From positions 71,348-135,347 of the forward strand of contig JAGBTM010000045.1 of NCBI GenBank assembly GCA_017631325.1: a stretch of DNA of 64,000 nucleotides, read 5' to 3'. Of this stretch, positions 3,228-58,527 are shown one piece after another. The notes beneath the pieces are model-generated. The model was not told the DNA's origin. It was given only the letters and a program-made list of their open reading frames with translations, and ran no database searches. Within the stretch, counting starts at the first letter, position 1. The number at the start of each line of letters is the position of its first letter. The stretch is from Clostridia bacterium. GTDB lineage: Bacteria > Bacillota > Clostridia > Oscillospirales > CAG-272. The position numbers and the translations under genes were made by a program.

Positions 3228-4370
3228 TTAATCCACACGGCGCTCGGCAAGCAAGTCCTTGTAGGCGCGGTAAAATTCCTCGTAACGTCCCTCGTCAAGC
3301 GCATCGCGTATTTTCTGCATAAGCTCGTTATAGAAATAGAGATTATGCAGCACGGCAAGACGCATACCGAGCGCCTCGCGCGCTTTGAAGAGATGCCTTA
3401 TGTAAGAGCGCGAGTAATTTCTGCACGCAGGACAGGAGCATTCCTCTGCTATCGGACGGCTGTCCTCTGAATATTTTTCGTTAAGAAGATTTATTTTTCC
3501 CCGCCAGGTAAAGAGGTTGCCGTGACGCGCGTTACGGCTGGGCATTACGCAGTCGAAGAAATCCACTCCGCGATAAACGGCCTCTACTATATTCTGAGGT
3601 GTACCGACACCCATAAGGTATCTCGGCTTATCCTCGGGCATATATGGCTCGACAGTTTCAATGATATGATACATTACGTCGGCCTCCTCGCCTACTGCAA
3701 GACCTCCTATTGCGTATCCGTCGCACTCTATCTCACGGATAGCCTTCATATTCTCAATTCTTAACTCGTCGTAGGTTCCACCCTGGTTTATTCCGAATAG
3801 CATCTGCTGACGGTTTACGGTGGTTTCAAGCGAGTTCAGTCTGTCCATCTCCACTCTGCACCTTTTGAGCCAACGTATCGTACGCTCGTGCGATGCCTTG
3901 ACGTAGTTATATGGCGAGGGGTTCTCGACACACTCGTCAAAGGCCATAGCGATGGTGGAGCCGAGGTTAGACTGTATTCTCATAGACTCCTCGGGACCCA
4001 TAAATATGCGCTTACCGTCCATGTGAGAGTTGAAGGTAACGCCCTCCTCGGTTATCTTACGCAGCTTTGCGAGTGAAAATACCTGAAATCCGCCTGAGTC
4101 GGTGAGAACGGGGCGAGACCAATTAAAGAACTTATGAAGTCCACCCATACGGCGTATAAGCTCGTCACCCGGTCTTATATGCAAATGGTAGGTATTTGAA
4201 AGCTCGACCTGACAGTTTACGTCCTCGAGGTCTTTAGTAGAGATACCGCCCTTGATGGCAGCCGAGGTGCCTACGTTCATAAACACGGGGGTTTCTATCG
4301 TTCCGTGAGGGGTTTCAAATCTCGCGCGGCGAGCCTTTCCCTCTTTCTTAAGTAAGGTGAATTTACCCAT
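3228..4370 (-). CDS. tgt: tRNA-guanine transglycosylase (queuine tRNA-ribosyltransferase)
   Basis: 'RFETPHGTIETPVFMNVGT', 'LTDSGGFQVFSL' and the Zn site 'CSCPACRNYSRSYIRHL'. Confidence 0.95.
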   Translation of the reverse strand: MGKFTLLKKEGKARRARFETPHGTIETPVFMNVGTSAAIKGGISTKDLEDVNCQVELSNTYHLHIRPGDELIRRMGGLHKFFNWSRPVLTDSGGFQVFSLAKLRKITEEGVTFNSHMDGKRIFMGPEESMRIQSNLGSTIAMAFDECVENPSPYNYVKASHERTIRWLKRCRVEMDRLNSLETTVNRQQMLFGINQGGTYDELRIENMKAIREIECDGYAIGGLAVGEEADVMYHIIETVEPYMPEDKPRYLMGVGTPQNIVEAVYRGVDFFDCVMPSRNARHGNLFTWRGKINLLNEKYSEDSRPIAEECSCPACRNYSRSYIRHLFKAREALGMRLAVLHNLYFYNELMQKIRDALDEGRYEEFYRAYKDLLAERRVD

Positions 4371-18661: not shown

Positions 18662-18816
18662 TTCTTCTCTACCCTATCGCCTCTTAGCGTCATACGGACG
18701 TACTTAAGATATTCCTCTCTGAGAGCCTTCTGCTCGGCACGCTCACTCTCGGTAAGCTCGCGCTCCTTTTTAAGTCTTGCAAGCTCGTTTATTCTGTCTA
18801 TCTTTTCTTTTTCCAT
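18658..18816 (-). CDS. DUF896/UPF0291-like small helical protein
   Basis: 'MEKEKIDRINELARLKKERELTESERAEQKALREEYLKYVR' matches my memory of the YnzC/DUF896 family. The start is placed at the internal ATG (18816). Confidence 0.6.
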   Translation of the reverse strand: MEKEKIDRINELARLKKERELTESERAEQKALREEYLKYVRMTLRGDRVEKK

Positions 18817-18843: not shown

Positions 18844-18965
18844 TTTGAGTGCAAGATAACCTATCTTGCAGGTCGCAATAAATGCTTTGAACGCGAGATA
18901 ACCTAACCTGTAGGTCGCACTAAATATTTTTGAGTGCGAGATAACCTAACCTGTCGGTTGCTCTC
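18844..18965. repeat. 3 x ~42-bp degenerate tandem repeat between sdaA and the DUF896-like gene
   Basis: Unit core GCRAGATAACCTAWCYTGYAGGTCGC, with periods of 41 and 43 bp. Each unit carries an ACCTA/TAGGT mini-hairpin. Confidence 0.8.
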
Positions 18966-18988
18966 TATATTATGATACAAGCTAAGGG

Positions 18989-20221
18989 TTAAAATTCGCT
19001 GTTGTAGGGTCTTAAATAATTTGTGTCGTTATAGAGCTTCGCAAGGCCTCCCGTAGAAGTCTCACGGTAATGGTGAGAGAGGTCCTTGCCCGTCTCGTAC
19101 ATAGTCTTGATTACGAGGTCGAGCGAGATTTTACGCGAGTCGGAGAGGAAATTCGCAAGGCTGACGGCGTTTATAGCTCGCATAGCGGCAACGGCGTTAC
19201 GCTCGATGCAGGGTATCTGAACCAAACCGCAAATCGGGTCGCAGGTAAGTCCAAGATGATGCTCAAAGGCAATCTCAGCGGCGTACTCTATCTGGTCAAT
19301 TCCCATTTCAAACAGCTCTCCGAGAGCTGCGGACGCCATAGAGCATGCCGTACCTATCTCGGCCTGACAGCCACATTCCGCACCGCTTATAGATGCGTTT
19401 TCCTTGACGAGAGTGCCGATAAGTCCCGCAACTGCGAGAGCTCTGAAAATCTGCATATCCTTGAAGCCGTGCTTCTCCTGCATATATTTAAGTACGGACG
19501 GCAGAACCGCACACGCACCACAGGTGGGCGCTGTGACTATCGTGCCGTTGTCGGCATTCTGCTCGCTGACAGCGTAGGCGTAGGCGCAGACTATTCTGTT
19601 CTCGCGAGTGGTGGGCGACTCGTCGATATGGCGCTGATTAAATATGTGCTGAGCCTTGCGCTCTACCTCAAGTCCTCCAGGAAGAATACCCGAGGTGGTA
19701 AGTCCGTCGTGTATAGCGCTCTCCATGGTTTCCCATACGGTATAGAGGAAGTTGAGAATGGACTCTCCCTCTCGCATAATGACGTAATCCGACAGGCGCA
19801 TACGGTGTTTTTTGCAATACTCTGAAATCTTTGAAAAAGTGGTTTCGGGATAGATGTCGATATCAAAGGACTCGGCTCTTCCCTCAATTTCAATATCTCC
19901 GCCTCCGACGCTCATAACTCGCATAGGATTCTCACATCGCACACCGCCCTTTACCTCGTAGATATCCATAGTATTCTCGTGAGGAAGGTTTCGGTCGTAG
20001 GTGTTGAAAATTATCTTAACGGGCTTGCCTGCCGTCATTTCTATCGCTTTGTCAGTGCCGTGTCCCTCTCCCGTATCGGCAAGAGAGCCGTAAAGGATAA
20101 CCTCAAAGCTGTCTGCATCAGGATGCTCAGAGGCGTAAATGCTCATCGCCTTTGCGGGTCCCATGGTATGAGAGGACGAGGGGCCCTTACCTATTTTGTA
20201 TATATCTCTGATGGATTTCAT
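18989..20221 (-). CDS. sdaA: L-serine ammonia-lyase (Fe-S dependent, single-chain)
   Basis: 'IYKIGKGPSSSHTMGPAKA' is the N-terminal signature. The start is moved to ATG 20221 (GAGAGG RBS); the listed upstream 19 codons lack support. Confidence 0.9.
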   Translation of the reverse strand: MKSIRDIYKIGKGPSSSHTMGPAKAMSIYASEHPDADSFEVILYGSLADTGEGHGTDKAIEMTAGKPVKIIFNTYDRNLPHENTMDIYEVKGGVRCENPMRVMSVGGGDIEIEGRAESFDIDIYPETTFSKISEYCKKHRMRLSDYVIMREGESILNFLYTVWETMESAIHDGLTTSGILPGGLEVERKAQHIFNQRHIDESPTTRENRIVCAYAYAVSEQNADNGTIVTAPTCGACAVLPSVLKYMQEKHGFKDMQIFRALAVAGLIGTLVKENASISGAECGCQAEIGTACSMASAALGELFEMGIDQIEYAAEIAFEHHLGLTCDPICGLVQIPCIERNAVAAMRAINAVSLANFLSDSRKISLDLVIKTMYETGKDLSHHYRETSTGGLAKLYNDTNYLRPYNSEF

Positions 20222-20335
20222 TATTTTTCTACCTCTCGTTTTTATATGATAGGTTTTAGTATAAGTATATTTTATCACACGCGAATGGAACTTTCAAGGG
20301 GTTTGGATAAGTTTTGACGACCATATCTTATACTT

Positions 20336-53574: not shown

Positions 53575-55413
53575 ATGAAAAAAGCATTAGACTTATTTTT
53601 GACTTTGTTCATTCTTTTGCTGTCTTTTGCGCTCGCCTCCTGCGATATACCAAGCGACGCACCAAGTGGCGAAGGCGATGGGGAAAAATCCCCCGAGAGC
53701 ATAATTATCCCCGATGCGCCATCGGGCATTCCAGCCTTTAAATTCAGCGAGATAACCTACTCGTCACCCTCGCTTGAGGATATAGAATTAAAGTACAGCG
53801 CAGCGACGGAGGCTGTAAAAAACGGTGATGATTTCGGGGAATGCTTAGAAAAAATCAAGCTTGCATCAAATTCCGCATCTTCCTTTATGACTATGTACTC
53901 CTACGCTACGGTGAAAATGCATATAAACTCTGCCGATAGCTACTACGTAGGCGAGTACGAGCGCCTTGCCGAATGGTACCCCGAGCTTATCAAACTTGAA
54001 GAGGAGCTTTATATTGCCGCGGCTGCATCAAAGGATTACGAGAGGTACGAGAACGAGTGCTTTGGTAAGGGTCTTACAAAAAAGTACGGCGACGGTGGAA
54101 TTTACTCGGACGAGGCCGTATCGCTTCTTGAAAAGGAAGCATCGCTCGTATCAAAATACAATTCTCTCTCAACTGCAAGCGTAATTATCAGCTACGATGG
54201 TATAAGTGACACCTTTGACAACACGGTCGCAAGGCTTGCCGAGAGATACGGCAAATCCTCGGACAGATACAAGACGGCGCTCAAAGAGTGCCGCGCTTTA
54301 TACGAGCAAACGACAGCAAAGGCTTCGCGTGAGATATTTTTGGCCCTCGTAAAAGTGCGAAGAGAAATTGCGGACGAGCTTGGATACGAAAGCTACACCG
54401 ACTATGCCTACGAGCTTTCAGGACACGACTATCAAAGAGAAGAAATGGAAGCGCTTATCAACGATATTTCAAAATACGCCGTACCCGTGTATAAAAAACT
54501 GAGCTACTCGACTTTTAAAAGCACACCCGCGCTGAGCGTAGATACTCCGACGGTCGTAAACGACATCACACGCGCTATCGCAAGCTCTGACAAGGAAATT
54601 TTTGACGTCTATTCGCACATGCTCGTATCCGGGCTATTTAATATTGAGGCGAGCGAAGCAAACCGTTTTCGCGGTTCGTTCACAACCTATTTTATCGACT
54701 TTGGCGCGCCATATCTTTTTGCTACCGTAAAGGGTGACATTTCGGATTATATGACCATATCTCACGAGTTCGGTCATTTCTACGATTACTTTATGAACCG
54801 AAATAAAAGCTCATCTCTTGACCTTGCCGAGATTTCCTCGCAGGCGCTTGAGCTTATAGTACTATGCAATCTGAAAGGCGAGCTTTCGCACAAGGAATAC
54901 TCCTCACTCTTCAGATACGAAATGAAAAGCTCGATGGAAGCCTTGATTTACCAAGCCTTTTATGCAAAATTCGAGCATTTGGTGTACGACCTTAAGGAAA
55001 GCGAAATTACGCCCTCAAGAATTGACGCTGCCGTCGTTGAGGCAGGAAAGCTTATGTCGCTTAATACCGAACATTACAGCTCCTTTGAGAGTATTATGAT
55101 AACGCACCTTTTCACCTCGCCTCTGTACGTTCAGTCCTACTCGACCGCAGCTCTCTCCTCACTTGAAATATTCTTTGCCGAGCTTGAAGAAGAGGGCGAG
55201 GGCGTAGAAATATACCGCGAGCTTGTAAAACGCGATGGGAAACTGAGCTACAAGGAGCATTTGACCTCGGTGGGACTTTCCTCACCGTTTGAAGAGGGAC
55301 TTGTAAAGTCACTATCCGATAAAATACACTTTACGCTTATCGGCTCCCATTTTTTCGAGGAATACAAAAGACCCGCGACGGCCTTCGTTAAAGACGGCAG
55401 GTTCGCCGCGTAG
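53575..55413 (+). CDS. M3-family oligoendopeptidase (PepF-like) lipoprotein
   Basis: Lipobox 'FALASC' at the end of the signal peptide, zinc motif 'HEFGHFYDY', and ~600 aa as for PepF-type enzymes. Confidence 0.85.
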   Translation: MKKALDLFLTLFILLLSFALASCDIPSDAPSGEGDGEKSPESIIIPDAPSGIPAFKFSEITYSSPSLEDIELKYSAATEAVKNGDDFGECLEKIKLASNSASSFMTMYSYATVKMHINSADSYYVGEYERLAEWYPELIKLEEELYIAAAASKDYERYENECFGKGLTKKYGDGGIYSDEAVSLLEKEASLVSKYNSLSTASVIISYDGISDTFDNTVARLAERYGKSSDRYKTALKECRALYEQTTAKASREIFLALVKVRREIADELGYESYTDYAYELSGHDYQREEMEALINDISKYAVPVYKKLSYSTFKSTPALSVDTPTVVNDITRAIASSDKEIFDVYSHMLVSGLFNIEASEANRFRGSFTTYFIDFGAPYLFATVKGDISDYMTISHEFGHFYDYFMNRNKSSSLDLAEISSQALELIVLCNLKGELSHKEYSSLFRYEMKSSMEALIYQAFYAKFEHLVYDLKESEITPSRIDAAVVEAGKLMSLNTEHYSSFESIMITHLFTSPLYVQSYSTAALSSLEIFFAELEEEGEGVEIYRELVKRDGKLSYKEHLTSVGLSSPFEEGLVKSLSDKIHFTLIGSHFFEEYKRPATAFVKDGRFAA

Positions 55414-55473
55414 AGATGCAAAAAATTCGAGTTCAATTTTATACTGATTTATAAGTGTTGCTTTACAAAACGG

Positions 55474-55505
55474 AAAGAGGCCGAAAAACGACCTCTTTTT
55501 CTTTG
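55474..55505 (+). terminator. Intrinsic terminator after the M3 peptidase gene
   Basis: AAAGAGG-ccgaaaaacga-CCTCTTT followed by a TTCTTTGTTT run. Confidence 0.7.
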
Positions 55506-55529
55506 TTTATTTATTTTTTAGTTAACCCC

Positions 55530-55558
55530 TTGATATTGCATACAAATTATGTTATAAT
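55530..55558 (+). promoter_or_regulatory. Near-consensus sigmaA promoter TTGATA-17-TATAAT
   Basis: TTGATA at 55530-55535, a 17-nt spacer, TATAAT at 55553-55558. The predicted TSS (~55565) coincides with the first base of the long helix. Confidence 0.6.
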
Positions 55559-55564
55559 TGTAGT

Positions 55565-55780
55565 GCCAAACTAACTTAATATTTGTGAAATGCGAGTTTT
55601 CTGTTCTTTTCAGAGCAACAAACTCTTTTCGGACATAATATCATTGTTGAATTTGATAAAATGCAAATTCCTATTAAGATGATATTATGCTTTGACACAA
55701 TTTCACTTAAGTTAGTTTGGCGACTATCGGAGTTTGCGTTTTTGTGCGGTTTACTTCGGTAGCCGCACTTTTATATTTTA
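55565..55780 (+). ncRNA. Candidate structured RNA: ~157-nt rod/three-way element + intrinsic terminator (riboswitch-like leader, attenuator, or independent sRNA/6S-like RNA)
   Basis: P1 pairs 55565-55579 with 55707-55721 (15 bp perfect) and 55585-55591 with 55700-55706 (7 bp). The side hairpin is 55594-55625. P3 pairs 55634-55644 with 55679-55689 (11 bp) and 55649-55655 with 55664-55670 (7 bp). A terminator hairpin with a T-tract follows at 55744-55780. Confidence 0.4.
55744..55780 (+). terminator. Intrinsic terminator inside the leader, 22 nt upstream of ATG 55802
   Basis: GTGCGG..TAC-TTCG-GTA..CCGCAC (with a UUCG tetraloop) followed by TTTTATATTTTA. Confidence 0.6.
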
Positions 55781-55801
55781 CTGTTGAAAGGAATTTTAGA
55801 A

Positions 55802-56233
55802 ATGTTTGAAAATGTAGGAGAAAAACTCAAAACTTTATCCAAAATACTAATGATTATTTCCTCTATTTTAGGAATAATAGCTGGCATCAAAATGTTTAAC
55901 ACAAGCGGAGCGCCTACAGCAATAATAATTATAATAATTTCGCCTATCGCTTCATATGTAAGTTTTTTGTCTGTCTATGGAATTGGTGAAATTTTAGTAA
56001 GGACAGAGTCATATAGAGACCACAACTCTAGAAACAAGGAAATCCCGTCTAATTATTCTGATAAGGCTGCAAACGACATAGTTGTAAATTCAGAACACGC
56101 ACCAGTTGTTAAATTAGACAATCATAACGAATGTTTTTGTCCTTCATGCAATGCGGCGCTTTCATTCGAATACACCTTTGGTCTCAAGCAATGTCCCCAC
56201 TGCAAAAAACATTTTAAGATTGAGAAAAAATGA
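55802..56233 (+). CDS. Hypothetical 143-aa 2-TM protein with C-terminal zinc ribbon; AT-rich foreign codon usage
   Basis: AAAGGA RBS upstream of ATG 55802. TM helices 'ILMIISSILGIIAGI' and 'AIIIIIISPIASYVSFLSVYGIG', and the ribbon 'CPSC...CPHC'. It uses 4 TTA, 1 CTA and 5 TCA codons, which neighbouring genes avoid. Confidence 0.5.
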   Translation: MFENVGEKLKTLSKILMIISSILGIIAGIKMFNTSGAPTAIIIIIISPIASYVSFLSVYGIGEILVRTESYRDHNSRNKEIPSNYSDKAANDIVVNSEHAPVVKLDNHNECFCPSCNAALSFEYTFGLKQCPHCKKHFKIEKK

Positions 56234-56241
56234 TTTTATAT

Positions 56242-56285
56242 AAAGAAAGAGATAGCCAGCAGGTTATCTCTTTCTTTATTTTGCT
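56242..56285. terminator. Bidirectional terminator between the small ORF and the ABC exporter gene
   Basis: AAAGAAAGAGATAGCC-agca-GGTTATCTCTTTCTTT followed by ATTTTGCTTTTTT. Confidence 0.75.
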
Positions 56286-56388: not shown

Positions 56389-58437
56389 TTATAAGAAGCC
56401 GATGTCCGAGGGCATTTTGTCGGGCTCTGCAGACTCTGCCACAAAGCTGTCTGGCTGCACATCAGTGCCGAGCGCGTGAGGACGAGGCGGGCGGCCACCC
56501 TGCGAGGGCGCATGAGCGTCGCCGTCTATATAACGGCTGGCCTGGGTTGTAAAGAGCTTATGATATTTTCCTCCGAGTGCCATCAGCTCCTCGTGTGTGC
56601 CTACCTCGATAACACTTCCCTCGTCAAGCACGACGATTTTGCTAGCTCCGACTGCGCTGGAAAGACGGTGAGATACGAAAATCGTGAGCTTGTTTTCCGA
56701 AAGCTCCTTAAATCTGTCGAACACCTCTTTTTCCGCTATGGCGTCAAGAGATGCCGTGGGCTCGTCGAGAATGAGAATGTCAGACTTTTTGAAGAATGCG
56801 CGAGCAACTGCGAGCTTCTGCCACTGTCCGCCGGAAAGCTCAATTCCGTCCTCCTCAAAAACTCTGGTAAGGGGGGTATCGTAGCCCTCGGGAAGCTTTC
56901 CTATAAATCCGTCGGCATCACCGTGCTCAGCGGCAAAGACGATATCCTCACCGGTGTATTCGCGTCCTACGTCGCCAAATCGAATATTCTCGCTGACGGT
57001 TTCGGAATACTTGCCAAAGTCCTGGAAAAGTATACCGTAAAGGTCGTACAAAGATGCCGTGTCGTATTCCTTGATGTTTACTCCGTCAAGAAGTATTTCG
57101 CCCTCGGTTGGGTCGTACAGTCTTGTAAGAAGCTTAATAAGTGTCGTTTTGCCTGCTCCGTTAAGTCCGACAAGAACTACGCTATCGTCATTCTTCAGCG
57201 TCAGGCTGACGTTATTTATAACCTTTCTTTCCTTGCCCGGATAAGAGAACGAGACGTTTCTAAGCTCAATGGTATGAGGCTCGCCCTTCCTTACTTTTCT
57301 TGGCTCTGTGGCAGTTGGTACTACGGTTGGCTTCTCGTTGACAAACTCAATCATATTATTTATAAAGAGTGTGCCCTCGTAAATGGTAGCCGTAGCTGTA
57401 AGCAGGGTCGTAACGTAGGTAGAAATAGAGGTGAGTGCGCCCGTGTAAAGCGAATAGTCACCTATCTCACCCTGATTTGATATGACGCTATACGCGACGT
57501 AGAAGAAGAGTGCGCAGTTTGCAAGGGTGGATATAAGTCCCACCGTCATCTGAGTTGCGCCCTCCTTGAGTATGAGGTTCTTCAGTCCCTTATAGTATTT
57601 AGCAAAGACCACCTTATACTTATCGATAAAGGTCTTTCCAAGACCGAGAATACGGATTTCCTTAACCATATCCTTGTTTACCATCGCGTTTGAATAATAG
57701 TTCATAGCTCGGCGCTCCTTGGAATGACGGCGCATGTACCAGAAGCTTCTGTGACGGTAAACGTAGTTGACCACGGCACCGGGAATTGAAATGGCTATTA
57801 TAACGAGCGGCGCAAATGGGTTAAGCGAGGCAAGAACCGCGACGAAGGATATAGCGCTTATGCAGGTGCTGATAACACTGAAGGTCGCAGAGAGAATTTG
57901 TATCGGGCGCATACCCGCCTCTCTGTTTGCGTTCTCGAGCTTCTCGTAAAACTCGGGACGGTCAAAGGACGCAAGGTCAACCGTATCTGCCTTTTTAACA
58001 ATTTTCAGCTTTATGTGATTTACGACAAGCTCACCTGCAATGCCTGTGACAATGCCGTTGATTTTAGCCGCAATTTTAGACAAAAAGAGGTACAGAAAAT
58101 AGAAAATAAACAGGAACGTAATCGGGCTCATAGCCGCAATTACGGCTTCGGCTCCCGAGCCTATCGACTTCGTAAGAAGCTCGGCTATGGCGTTAAGCAG
58201 GTCCTTTGAAATATAGGCGCCAAACACAGGCAAAATACCGTTAAAGGCACAAAGCGCCATCATAGCTATAAGCACGAAGGGGGACGCCTCCCATACAAGA
58301 GCTACTATGTAAAACAATCTTGTGAAAAATCCCTTTATCATCTCGGCAAAATAGCGTGGCAAATCCTTTATCCCCTCGGGCTTTTTGATGCCGTCGTCAG
58401 GGCGCTTCGGACCGAGAAAATCCTTATCTTTTTTCAC
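56389..58437 (-). CDS. ABC exporter, fused permease/ATPase (MsbA/multidrug type)
   Basis: A 6-TM domain followed by Walker A 'GLNGAGKTT', signature 'LSGGQWQK' and Walker B 'ILILDEPT'. GTG 58437 is preferred (AAAGGAG RBS). The ~45-aa Pro/Gly/acidic C-terminal tail is unusual. Confidence 0.85.
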   Translation of the reverse strand: MKKDKDFLGPKRPDDGIKKPEGIKDLPRYFAEMIKGFFTRLFYIVALVWEASPFVLIAMMALCAFNGILPVFGAYISKDLLNAIAELLTKSIGSGAEAVIAAMSPITFLFIFYFLYLFLSKIAAKINGIVTGIAGELVVNHIKLKIVKKADTVDLASFDRPEFYEKLENANREAGMRPIQILSATFSVISTCISAISFVAVLASLNPFAPLVIIAISIPGAVVNYVYRHRSFWYMRRHSKERRAMNYYSNAMVNKDMVKEIRILGLGKTFIDKYKVVFAKYYKGLKNLILKEGATQMTVGLISTLANCALFFYVAYSVISNQGEIGDYSLYTGALTSISTYVTTLLTATATIYEGTLFINNMIEFVNEKPTVVPTATEPRKVRKGEPHTIELRNVSFSYPGKERKVINNVSLTLKNDDSVVLVGLNGAGKTTLIKLLTRLYDPTEGEILLDGVNIKEYDTASLYDLYGILFQDFGKYSETVSENIRFGDVGREYTGEDIVFAAEHGDADGFIGKLPEGYDTPLTRVFEEDGIELSGGQWQKLAVARAFFKKSDILILDEPTASLDAIAEKEVFDRFKELSENKLTIFVSHRLSSAVGASKIVVLDEGSVIEVGTHEELMALGGKYHKLFTTQASRYIDGDAHAPSQGGRPPRPHALGTDVQPDSFVAESAEPDKMPSDIGFL

Positions 58438-58527
58438 CTTAGCTTCTCCTTTCTTGACCGCTGTACTTGGCAGTCCTTTCAAAAAGTTTATATAAAGTTT
58501 ATACGAATACACAATAAACGTTTAAAT

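Follow-up and report, generated by a model that had tools for sequence, protein, structure and literature searches.

What is the strongly folded element that lies between a near-consensus promoter and a small open reading frame in a contig of a Clostridia bacterium (GTDB CAG-272; assembly GCA_017631325.1, contig JAGBTM010000045.1), and does it regulate the gene that follows? The window analysed here is a 64,000 nucleotide stretch of this contig (positions 71,348 to 135,347), and all coordinates below refer to it. The initial annotation, made from the sequence alone, described a promoter firing into a highly paired RNA of about 157 nt with an intrinsic terminator, and suggested that it could be a riboswitch or attenuator leader, an independent small RNA of about 215 nt or a 6S-like rod with a central bubble. 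That observation holds, as every sequence feature it described is present at the stated coordinates. Of its interpretations only part is supported: the attenuator form of the leader is favoured, the independent small RNA is not excluded, and the 6S-like rod is not supported.

The promoter, the predicted fold and the gene that follows

The element can be divided into the following parts, in which the transcription start site, termination and read-through are inferred from sequence alone.

55530 to 55558 (+): sigma-70-type promoter, with -35 TTGATA at 55530-55535, a 17-nt spacer and an extended -10 TGtTATAAT (TG at 55550-55551, TATAAT at 55553-55558); the inferred start site is at 55564/55565.
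55565 to 55591 (+): 5' strand of helix P1, comprising P1a at 55565-55579 (GCCAAACTAACTTAA), which pairs perfectly with 55707-55721, a 5-nt bulge at 55580-55584 (family consensus AAUA-like) and P1b at 55585-55591, a 7-bp helix with 55700-55706.
55594 to 55625 (+): P2 side hairpin, followed here by a U-tract at 55626-55628; in most members it is a shorter hairpin ending in UAUACCC, followed by a U-tract.
55629 to 55695 (+): P3 long stem-loop, with a basal stem of 55629-55645 and 55678-55695, an apical 7-bp stem of 55649-55655 and 55664-55670, and a loop at 55656-55663.
55658 to 55671 (+): AAAAUGCAAAUUCC, the P3 apical loop plus 3' strand, the partner of the linker in the anti-antiterminator helix.
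55700 to 55721 (+): 3' strand of P1, with P1b at 55700-55706 and P1a at 55707-55721.
55722 to 55743 (+): conserved linker GACUAUCGGAGUUUGCGUUUUU, in which 55724-55733 form the antiterminator 5' strand and 55729-55743 the anti-antiterminator strand.
55744 to 55780 (+): intrinsic terminator, with a UUCG-loop hairpin at 55744-55768 (GUGCGGUUUACUUCGGUAGCCGCAC) and a U-tract at 55769-55780; positions 55753-55762 (ACUUCGGUAG), the terminator loop and 3' arm, can instead pair with the linker to form the antiterminator.
55787 to 56233 (+): ribosome binding site (AAAGGAA, about 55787-55793) and the controlled ORF, 55802-56233.
56240 to 56279 (+): terminator that closes the inserted unit, an 18-pair stem followed by a T-run.

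The promoter matches 11 of 12 consensus positions and is the best site in the region, although a weak promoter-like site (TTTACT-16-TATATT, 55750-55777) overlaps the terminator and could drive the ORF independently. The fold is far beyond chance. The 157-nt part (55565-55721) folds as a three-way junction at -54.6 kcal/mol against -23.5 +/- 3.6 for dinucleotide shuffles (z = -8.6), with 0 of 200 shuffles as good, while the 221-nt version gives z = -7.6. The ORF encodes a product of 143 amino acids with an N-terminal two-TM segment and a C-terminal zinc-ribbon-like CxxC...CxxC. A word-indexed search with this protein found only itself, while an exhaustive HMMER search found 727 distant relatives. 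Relatives with the same MFxNIGxKIK N-terminus follow other members of the RNA family described below (the collected loci L083, L118, L124 and L127).

A covariance-model search of the window against Rfam 15 (4227 models) gave no hit at the gathering score. With the threshold relaxed to E <= 10 on 55400-55900 there was only noise (best 25 bits against a gathering score of 60), nothing covered the element, and no 6S model matched. This agrees with the statement in the initial annotation that no known family was recognised. No paper was found that contained the conserved strings, keyword searches of the literature found nothing, and there was no match in the 200 of 408 supplementary files of Fremin & Bhatt 2021 that were searchable.

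Distribution, covariation and alternative pairings in the family

To find relatives of the element we first used the neighboring genes. A scan of the genome contig collection with the upstream M3 peptidase found no relatives, while peptidase homologues at 54-59% identity keep the NifS/peptidase/ABC synteny but lack both the RNA and the ORF, and gave no homologous leaders. We also searched with a linker/terminator pattern, which returned at least 120 rows in each of the metagenome and species-representative genome collections. Keeping only loci with a P1 of at least 11 consecutive pairs left 183 distinct members, all in gut Clostridia MAGs plus a few phage-labelled contigs; the taxa include Oscillospiraceae, Acutalibacteraceae, Christensenellaceae, Lachnospiraceae and relatives. 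The plasmid collection gave no match and the phage collection gave only MT835503. Locus L012 and most loci of two of the pattern scans are chance matches in coding DNA, and a repeated coding-sequence match (catcGGAGTTTGCGTTTTCGACTGCTTCGGT) in the metagenome set failed the P1 filter and did not enter the family. Because the linker (GGAGTTTGYGTTTT) and CUUCGGU were part of the search patterns, their conservation within the collected set, and 5 of the 10 antiterminator pairs, are enforced by how the set was collected.

MAFFT alignment with RNAalifold on diverse members recovered only the helices conserved in sequence, so a covariance model was needed to align the rest; it found 103 and 75 hits in the two batches of loci. 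Compensatory change among homologues had been named beforehand as a test of the structure, and it supports every helix. On the model alignment, which leans towards the model's own structure, 93.4% of cells pair, against 68.6% in shuffles and 35-42% in slid controls, and 43 of 46 pairs show changes on both sides. The covariation score is 0.53, against 0.15 in shuffles and about 0.04-0.05 in slid controls. P1a cells are 98% paired with double changes at 11 of 13 pairs (for example GCCAAAC/GUUUGGC versus GUCACAC/GUGUGAC), and the helix of P2 is 85% paired with double changes at all 6 pairs. The basal helices of P3 are 90-98% paired with free covariation, whereas its apical stem is conserved in sequence (GAAUUUG/CAAAUUC) and 94.5-96% paired. 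The terminator helix is 98.3% paired, with double changes at 6 of 10 pairs. The three-way junction with two hairpin branches was seen in 114 of 137 representatives. G·U/U·G cells number 334 against 70 A·C/C·A cells, so the structure is selected as RNA.

The layout around the RNA is also conserved. The -10 hexamer ends 4-6 nt before P1 in 137 of 180 members, 118 have the TG extension and 120 have a -35 with at least 4 of 6 matches. A co-oriented ORF, usually with an SD-like motif upstream, starts within 80 nt of the terminator loop in 144 of 173 evaluable members. The products are heterogeneous and include zinc-ribbon and small membrane proteins, lipoproteins and methyltransferases. The 147 distinct downstream proteins fall into 87 Pfam families, of which the largest groups are zinc ribbons (12), BspA LRR (6), SHOCT (4) and EcoRI-type methylase (3), and the PHROG and PADLOC hits are equally mixed. 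The downstream genes share no function, so no ligand can be guessed from them.

There are three mutually exclusive pairings: the terminator, an antiterminator in which the linker (CNAUCGGAGU) pairs with ACUUCGGUN'G of the terminator, and a 14-15-bp anti-antiterminator in which the linker (GGAGUUUGCGUUUUU) pairs with the P3 loop and 3' strand (AAAAAUGCAAAUUCC). The only freely variable pair of the antiterminator shows AU 66, UA 57, UG 17 and GC 2, with AA 0 where 23 were expected, and the linker base mimics the base of the terminator 5' arm. The formal count gives 65 double-change cells against 31 +/- 4 in shuffles. The terminator and antiterminator states are nearly isoenergetic, with a median difference of -0.6 kcal/mol and 94 of 182 members within 2 kcal/mol.

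For the anti-antiterminator, at least 14 contiguous pairs occur in 157 of 183 members, against 7 of 915 shuffled linkers. Of its cells 98.5% are paired, every common change on the unconstrained apical side is wobble-compatible with the linker, and at the loop position A occurs 5 times, always opposite a linker U. Three members outside the canonical linker sequence keep the helix with different sequences. L292, recovered by a P3-apical pattern, has GGAAUUUGCG. L243b and L150b were recovered as additional hits of the covariance model: L243b pairs GAAGCGCGCAUUUUU with AAAAAUGCGUGUUUU, carrying 3-4 compensatory changes and a re-matched terminator loop and linker, and L150b pairs GGCAUGCAUUUUU with AAAAAUGUAUGCU. 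In the window the anti-antiterminator duplex (14 bp) is worth -17.6 kcal/mol against -4.9 for the apical hairpin, while the antiterminator fold is worth -14.8 and the terminator -12.5 kcal/mol. The switch suggested by the initial annotation, in which GAGTTTG at 55730-55736 pairs with CAAACTC at 55619-55625 in competition with the side hairpin, can form in this sequence but is not conserved, as CAAACTC occurs in only 7 of 183 members.

A putative transcription attenuator and its alternatives

We consider it more likely than not that the element is one member of a large family of promoter-proximal leader RNAs of gut Clostridia, not listed in Rfam 15, which acts in cis as a transcription attenuator for the gene that follows. 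In this view a strong promoter starts transcription at the first base of a very stable three-way-junction RNA, which is followed by a conserved single-stranded linker with two competing partners. Pairing of the 5' part of the linker with the loop and 3' arm of the terminator would block the terminator, so that RNA polymerase continues into the gene. Pairing of nearly the whole linker with the loop and 3' strand of the P3 apical hairpin would instead sequester it, allowing the terminator to form and leaving an RNA of about 215 nt. Which partner wins should depend on whether the P3 apical hairpin and loop are closed or masked, or are available, a state that the folded junction or a bound factor would set. 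The promoter-leader module sits in front of unrelated accessory genes, and in this genome it was gained together with its ORF.

The structure, the three alternative helices with their covariation, and the conserved order of promoter, terminator and gene are shown by the analysis, while it is inferred that transcripts terminate or read through and that this choice is regulated, as are the default state and the nature of any effector, whether protein, small molecule, RNA or physical condition. With P1 and P3 intact the anti-antiterminator in cis is a pseudoknot that would need P3 to fold back along P1. The lengths of P1 and P3 in MFE folds, compared as a test for such side-by-side docking, correlate negatively (r = -0.40), which gives no support for length matching, although shifts in the MFE boundaries may have produced this. 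The junction nucleotides are not conserved, unlike typical metabolite aptamers; conservation lies instead in P1a, the AAUA bulge, the U-tract, the P3 apical hairpin and the linker. With no ligand identified, a riboswitch in the strict sense is not shown.

A possible but less likely alternative is that the element is a stand-alone small RNA gene whose terminated transcript acts in trans, either by pairing of its invariant linker or P3 apical loop with other RNAs, including nascent leaders of sister copies in the manner of ctRNA-type attenuation, or by titration of a protein, with downstream expression being incidental read-through or coming from the gene's own weak promoter. The strong promoter and terminator, the 5' end buried in a helix that should stabilise the RNA, and the promoter-like site overlapping the terminator are consistent with this, as is the presence of several copies per metagenome or MAG (two loci each for RGIG4040 and SIG456, and tandem copies in L185 and L150). 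The 15-nt complementarity of linker and apical sequence is identical across copies, so trans pairing is chemically possible. However, a co-oriented ORF with a ribosome binding site at a short, narrow distance in about 83% of evaluable members is not expected for an independent small RNA gene, covariation of the antiterminator with the terminator only makes sense if read-through matters, and the joint change of both sides of the anti-antiterminator in divergent copies points to a cis constraint. It is doubtful that the element is a processive-antitermination RNA, like HK022 put or Bacillus EAR, which would modify the polymerase to ignore the following terminator and so insulate the cargo gene from outside transcription. 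The order of structured RNA, terminator and gene, and the conservation of hairpin sequences over junction nucleotides, would fit, but this reading does not explain the two covarying alternative helices, the Rfam search returned no such family above noise, and polymerases arriving from upstream would transcribe the same RNA, so there would be no insulation.

A DNA-level feature, such as an invertible switch flanked by the P1 repeats, an attC-like site or a MITE, also appears unlikely. The perfect 15-bp inverted repeats, the tandem units and the absence of the RNA+ORF unit from syntenic relatives could suggest one, and in one member (L011) the interior between the P1 arms is inverted relative to its promoter and terminator, with a covariance-model score of 65.6 bits on the opposite strand against 52.5 on the promoter strand. 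This was 1 of about 250 occurrences, in a count made without examining reads. The P1 ends GCCAAAC/GTTTGGC resemble the integron R''/R' boxes RYYYAAC/GTTRRRY but fail at the fourth position; attC sites lie at the 3' end of promoterless cassettes in arrays, whereas the element lies 5' of the gene with its own promoter and most loci are single. The nearest upstream genes are unrelated housekeeping genes, with no recombinase in a scan of one gene per locus. There is only one copy in the 64-kb window, copies elsewhere differ freely in stem sequence while keeping the pairing, and the inverted repeats are internal to a transcription unit with conserved promoter, terminator and antiterminator logic. 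The excess of G·U over A·C again indicates selection on the transcribed strand as RNA. An mRNA for a small hydrophobic peptide, like a type I toxin, with the 5' structure controlling its translation, is similarly improbable. An ORF at 55717-55809 encodes a hydrophobic 30-mer (LATIGVCVF...), and the free variable positions of the linker fall at every third base in that frame, but the start codon exists in only 68 of 183 members, lies inside P1 and has no SD, stop positions scatter from 15 nt to more than 150 nt, and T-run indels break the frame. ORFs starting at the GTG/ATG of the terminator arm are not coupled to the main start codon, which also rules against a coupled leader peptide. The 6S-like reading is the least likely and is contradicted by the architecture; the size of about 160-215 nt and the long closing stem speak for it.

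A more speculative and improbable reading, which would be of high interest if true, is that the promoter-leader is a portable front end that travels with horizontally acquired accessory genes and ties them into one RNA-based regulon. The terminated leaders from every copy carry the same 15-nt linker and complementary P3 apical sequence, and could therefore pair in trans with nascent leaders of sister copies, in the manner of ctRNA attenuation, so that the total dose of the family would set the expression of each member. Alternatively, a single dedicated protein or signalling molecule could read the invariant P3 hairpin. Either would be a genome-wide control layer for foreign or accessory genes in gut Clostridia that has not been described.

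If the attenuator reading is right, this is a widespread and previously uncatalogued class of cis-regulatory RNA in uncultured gut Clostridia, with a three-state switch that is unusually easy to read from sequence. It would control genes that are otherwise hard to study, most of them without known function, including small membrane and zinc-ribbon proteins, lipoproteins, surface LRR proteins, orphan methyltransferases and superinfection-exclusion proteins. Finding its effector would reveal a signal that coordinates accessory and surface genes in major gut commensals, and would also give a compact, modular regulatory part for engineering these organisms.

Comparison with known systems

6S RNA (SsrS) is of similar size and also has a long helix closing its 5' and 3' ends, but it is a rod containing a bubble while the conserved fold here is a three-way junction, and a multi-copy family with each copy tied to a downstream gene is unlike ssrS. 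Phage moron units are likewise self-contained units of promoter, gene and terminator inserted between conserved genes. The cargo here includes Ltp-type superinfection-exclusion lipoproteins, orphan methyltransferases and antitoxins, and a few members lie on phage-labelled contigs. Most members, however, lie next to housekeeping genes in chromosomes, and morons are not known to share a common structured leader. In the antisense-RNA (ctRNA) attenuation of plasmid rep genes (pT181, pIP501), pairing of a complementary RNA segment to the nascent leader decides whether a pre-emptor (antiterminator) or the terminator forms. Here the complementary segment is in the same transcript, trans action between copies is only a possibility, and the context is not a replicon.

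Metabolite or second-messenger riboswitches with transcriptional expression platforms, for example the c-di-GMP classes that control surface proteins in Clostridia, share a structured 5' domain supported by covariation, a predicted bistable terminator/antiterminator platform and many controlled genes for surface or membrane proteins. In the present family P1 is very long and cannot be the switching helix, the conserved nucleotides lie in helices and hairpin loops rather than in the junction, and the terminator sequence itself is conserved. The terminator, antiterminator and anti-antiterminator attenuators of Firmicutes (pyr operon PyrR sites, the B. subtilis infC-rpmI-rplT L20 leader and T-box leaders) also place a leader of about 200 nt between promoter and gene, with an intrinsic terminator that can be replaced by an upstream alternative helix, a third element further upstream that can sequester that helix, and, as inferred here, a decision taken during transcription; the L20 leader also uses long-range pairing (PMC1865079). 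There is no sequence or model match to any of them (L20_leader scores 14 bits against a gathering score of 58.7, and no T-box match was returned), and no effector has been identified for the present family. Here the sequestering partner is a hairpin loop plus its 3' strand at the tip of a long arm, and the regulated genes are unrelated to one another.

The element and its genomic context

The initial annotation had described a consensus promoter firing into a highly paired RNA, followed by an intrinsic terminator and a small ORF, and this observation holds, as every feature that it listed is present in the sequence at the positions given for it. The promoter is the best promoter-like site in the region, with 11 of 12 matches and a TG extension, and seven bases after the −10 hexamer a perfect helix begins.

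Features of the element in the window
55530-55558: promoter, TTGATA, 17 nt, TATAAT
55565-55579 with 55707-55721: perfect 15-bp helix, followed by a 5-nt bulge and then a 7-bp helix (together P1)
55594-55625: side hairpin (P2)
55629-55695: long stem-loop (P3)
55744-55768: UUCG-capped terminator, with its T-tract following
55802: ATG, preceded by the RBS

The 157-nt core folds at −54.6 kcal/mol, compared with −23.5 ± 3.6 kcal/mol for shuffled sequences (z = −8.6), and the element occurs once in the window. A search of the whole window against Rfam 15 gave nothing at gathering scores, while relaxed thresholds over 55400-55900 gave only noise. A weak promoter-like site (TTTACT, 16 nt, TATATT; 55750-55777) overlaps the terminator loop and U-tract, and by eye the same place reads TTGACT...TATTTT in many homologues, so the downstream gene might have a low-level start of its own.

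In this uncultured Clostridia bacterium MAG the element lies between a gene for an M3-family peptidase (53575-55413) and a convergent ABC-transporter gene (56389-58512). The nearest relatives have 54-59% peptidase identity and keep the order NifS / peptidase / ABC transporter, but only 133-343 nt separate the last two genes and they have neither the RNA nor the small ORF. A unit of about 750 bp is therefore specific to this lineage, comprising the promoter, the RNA, a terminator, a 143-aa ORF and a second terminator. The ORF encodes a two-TM protein with a C-terminal zinc-ribbon-like motif and has only distant relatives. The hairpin AAAGAGG(c/t)CGAAAA(a/t)CGACCTCTTT after the peptidase gene (55474-55498) is also present in similar form in the closest relative that lacks the RNA and ORF unit (locus L004, 4866-4892), although the scan for transcription signals listed the copy in the window only as a minus-strand terminator-like site. 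The unit therefore appears to have been inserted just downstream of that hairpin. Elsewhere in the window, three tandem 43-nt units that are 79-84% identical (18844-18971) lie in the intergenic region between the ORF 18989-20278 (minus strand) and a small ORF starting near 18816 (minus strand), which begins MEKEKIDRINELARLKKERELTE; these have no Rfam match.

Homologues and covariation

A blastn hit limited to the linker, the conserved segment between P1 and the terminator, and to the terminator itself led to a gut phage scaffold, MT835503. Upstream of that hit lies the same architecture with entirely different stem sequences, together with its own promoter. In this phage-labelled scaffold (MT835503.1, 88-162 and 575-1723) the family member lies between a tRNA-Gly(GCC) gene on the minus strand and an EcoRI-type adenine methyltransferase ORF, about 340 bp from the contig end, so the scaffold may include host or prophage-junction DNA. 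Patterns taken from the shared blocks gave more members in IMG/VR and at least 120 hits in each of the metagenome and species-representative genome collections. All genome hits are MAGs of gut Clostridia from humans, ruminants, deer, rabbit and other animals, and the taxa named are Oscillospiraceae, Acutalibacteraceae, Christensenellaceae, Lachnospiraceae, Ruminococcus, Faecousia, Fimenecus and Scatosoma. After chance matches were discarded and a P1 of at least 11 consecutive pairs was required, 183 distinct members remained. The plasmid collection contains none and the annotated phage collection contains only MT835503.

To align the divergent stems we built a covariance model from four close members, which found 103 and 75 hits in two batches of loci. 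On the first alignment 93.4% of cells form a standard pair, compared with 68.6% in shuffles and 35-42% in slid controls, while the covariation score is 0.53, compared with 0.15 and about 0.04-0.05 respectively, and 43 of 46 pairs show changes on both sides. The alignment is fitted to the model and the sequences are related, so these numbers lean in favor of the structure, however the margin is very large and is also visible by eye, for example in P1 GCCAAAC/GUUUGGC against GUCACAC/GUGUGAC and in P3 stems with unrelated sequences. G·U and U·G cells outnumber A·C and C·A cells by 334 to 70, and the structure is therefore selected on the transcribed strand, as RNA. The conserved sequence blocks are the outer part of P1, an AAUA-like bulge, a U-tract after P2, the P3 apical hairpin gaaUUuGnuAAAAyGCaAAUUCc and the linker GACnAUCGGAGUUUGCGUUUUU, although the member set was itself collected with a linker/terminator pattern. 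The junction nucleotides are not conserved. In one member (locus L090, OERZ01000198.1, 10338-10668, minus strand) the P1 3′ strand is interrupted by an insert of about 190 nt with terminal inverted repeats GGAAACTCTGAATAAAT.../...ATTTATTCAGAGCTTCC and a duplicated TTAG, so that it looks like a MITE insertion.

The promoter is conserved at a fixed distance, with the −10 hexamer ending 4-6 nt before P1 in 137 of 180 members and a TG extension in 118. A co-oriented ORF, usually preceded by an SD-like motif, starts within 80 nt of the terminator loop in 144 of 173 evaluable members. This is the signature of a leader, not of a free-standing sRNA gene.

Competing pairings of the linker

The linker strand 5′-CNAUCGGAGU can pair with 5′-ACUUCGGUN'G, which is the loop and 3′ arm of the terminator. 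In the window this predicted antiterminator is the MFE structure of the full transcript, with its fold at −14.8 kcal/mol compared with −12.5 kcal/mol for the terminator. While half of this helix was fixed by the search pattern, the free pair N-N′ nevertheless covaries strongly (AU 66, UA 57, UG 17, GC 2, non-pairs 39, and AA 0 where 23 were expected). N copies whatever base the terminator 5′ arm uses to pair with N′, which is exactly what competing strands should do. The formal count gives 65 double-change cells compared with 31 ± 4 in shuffles, and over 182 members the terminator and antiterminator states are nearly isoenergetic, with a median difference of −0.6 kcal/mol.

The linker 5′-GGAGUUUGCGUUUUU is also complementary to 5′-AAAAAUGCAAAUUCC, the loop plus 3′ strand of the P3 apical hairpin, over 15 nt with 13 Watson-Crick pairs and 2 G·U. 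The window has 14 bp at −17.6 kcal/mol, compared with −4.9 kcal/mol for the hairpin that must be opened. In cis this anti-antiterminator would be a pseudoknot, and that it is sterically feasible is an assumption. The apical sequence was not part of the two large search patterns, yet at least 14 contiguous pairs are present in 157 of 183 members, compared with 7 of 915 shuffled linkers. Every common substitution on the apical side is compatible with the fixed linker (U to C and C to U opposite G, A to G opposite U), and at the one loop position opposite the variable linker base A appears five times, always with a linker U.

Three members outside the canonical linker sequence carry different sequences on both sides and keep the helix. 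L292 was recovered by a P3-apical pattern, while L243b, with 3-4 compensatory changes and a re-matched antiterminator, and L150b were recovered as additional covariance-model hits. The latter two (L243, 4510-4675, and L150, 1340-1480, both minus strand) are divergent, shorter relatives of the family, each lying near a canonical copy, and their linker and apical sequences remain complementary over 13-15 bp; L150b comes directly after the terminator of another member. A further short member (L252, 343-453) keeps P1, the linker and the terminator but lacks the P3 apical AAAAAUGCAAAUUCC segment and, if the model is right, should read through constitutively.

In this model, if the apical hairpin is closed or masked the linker would be free, the antiterminator would form and transcription would read through. 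If instead the apical loop and 3′ strand are available the linker would be sequestered, the terminator would form and a ~215-nt RNA would be released. The fold, the covarying alternative helices and the conserved promoter, terminator and gene layout are shown by the sequence analysis, while termination and read-through, their regulation, and an effector that would set the state of P3 are inferred without expression data.

Downstream genes and alternative explanations

The 147 distinct downstream proteins fall into 87 Pfam families, with groups that include zinc ribbons, BspA-type LRR and Listeria-Bacteroides-repeat surface proteins, SHOCT, EcoRI-type methylases, YpsA/SLOG, MazE, an Ltp lipoprotein and SPFH, although many have no match at all. 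PHROG matches include superinfection exclusion, methyltransferases, antitoxins and endolysins, PADLOC finds a few defense proteins, mostly methyltransferases, and many others begin with lipoprotein-like or signal-peptide-like sequences. At locus L185 (2159-2878) two family members sit in tandem 324 nt apart, and the second is followed by a ~55-aa cysteine-rich peptide ORF (MSKNI.KRV.DITG.EL.PGEP.VCLGNGE.GFECCCDECDYYLLCFPEFD). The same peptide family recurs behind other members (L105, L156, L206, L208 and L229) and may be a RiPP-like or secreted peptide. The upstream neighbors are unrelated housekeeping genes on either strand. The module therefore precedes accessory, often envelope-related genes scattered around chromosomes, and in the window it was gained together with its ORF.

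The interpretation in the initial annotation, which offered a riboswitch or attenuator leader, an independent sRNA or a 6S-like rod, is partly supported. 6S-like mimicry is contradicted by both the architecture and the models. A trans-acting role for the terminated RNA cannot be excluded, as the identical linker and apical sequences in all copies would allow cross-talk, but the tight, co-oriented gene linkage and the covarying antiterminator argue that cis control is the main function. Neither a small peptide encoded across the linker nor a coupled leader peptide is conserved. Readings at the level of DNA, as an inverton, an attC-like site or a MITE, have the G·U asymmetry, the single copy in the window and the conserved transcription signals against them, but one member remains to be accounted for. 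In L011 (IMG/VR 3300010346_002427, 3683-3878) the segment between the two P1 arms is inverted relative to its own promoter, linker and terminator. The model scores 65.6 bits on the opposite strand compared with 52.5 bits on the promoter strand, and in this orientation the linker cannot pair with the P3 apical region. This could be a real inversion between the P1 inverted repeats or an assembly artefact.

The finding is real and more than chance. The element is a member of a large family of structured leaders that is not in Rfam 15, and for which literature searches, covering only open-access text and only part of one large supplement, found no description. On the evidence of sequence alone it works, most probably, as a terminator/antiterminator/anti-antiterminator attenuator. 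This kind of mechanism is known, while the family, its effector and its association with heterogeneous accessory genes appear new.
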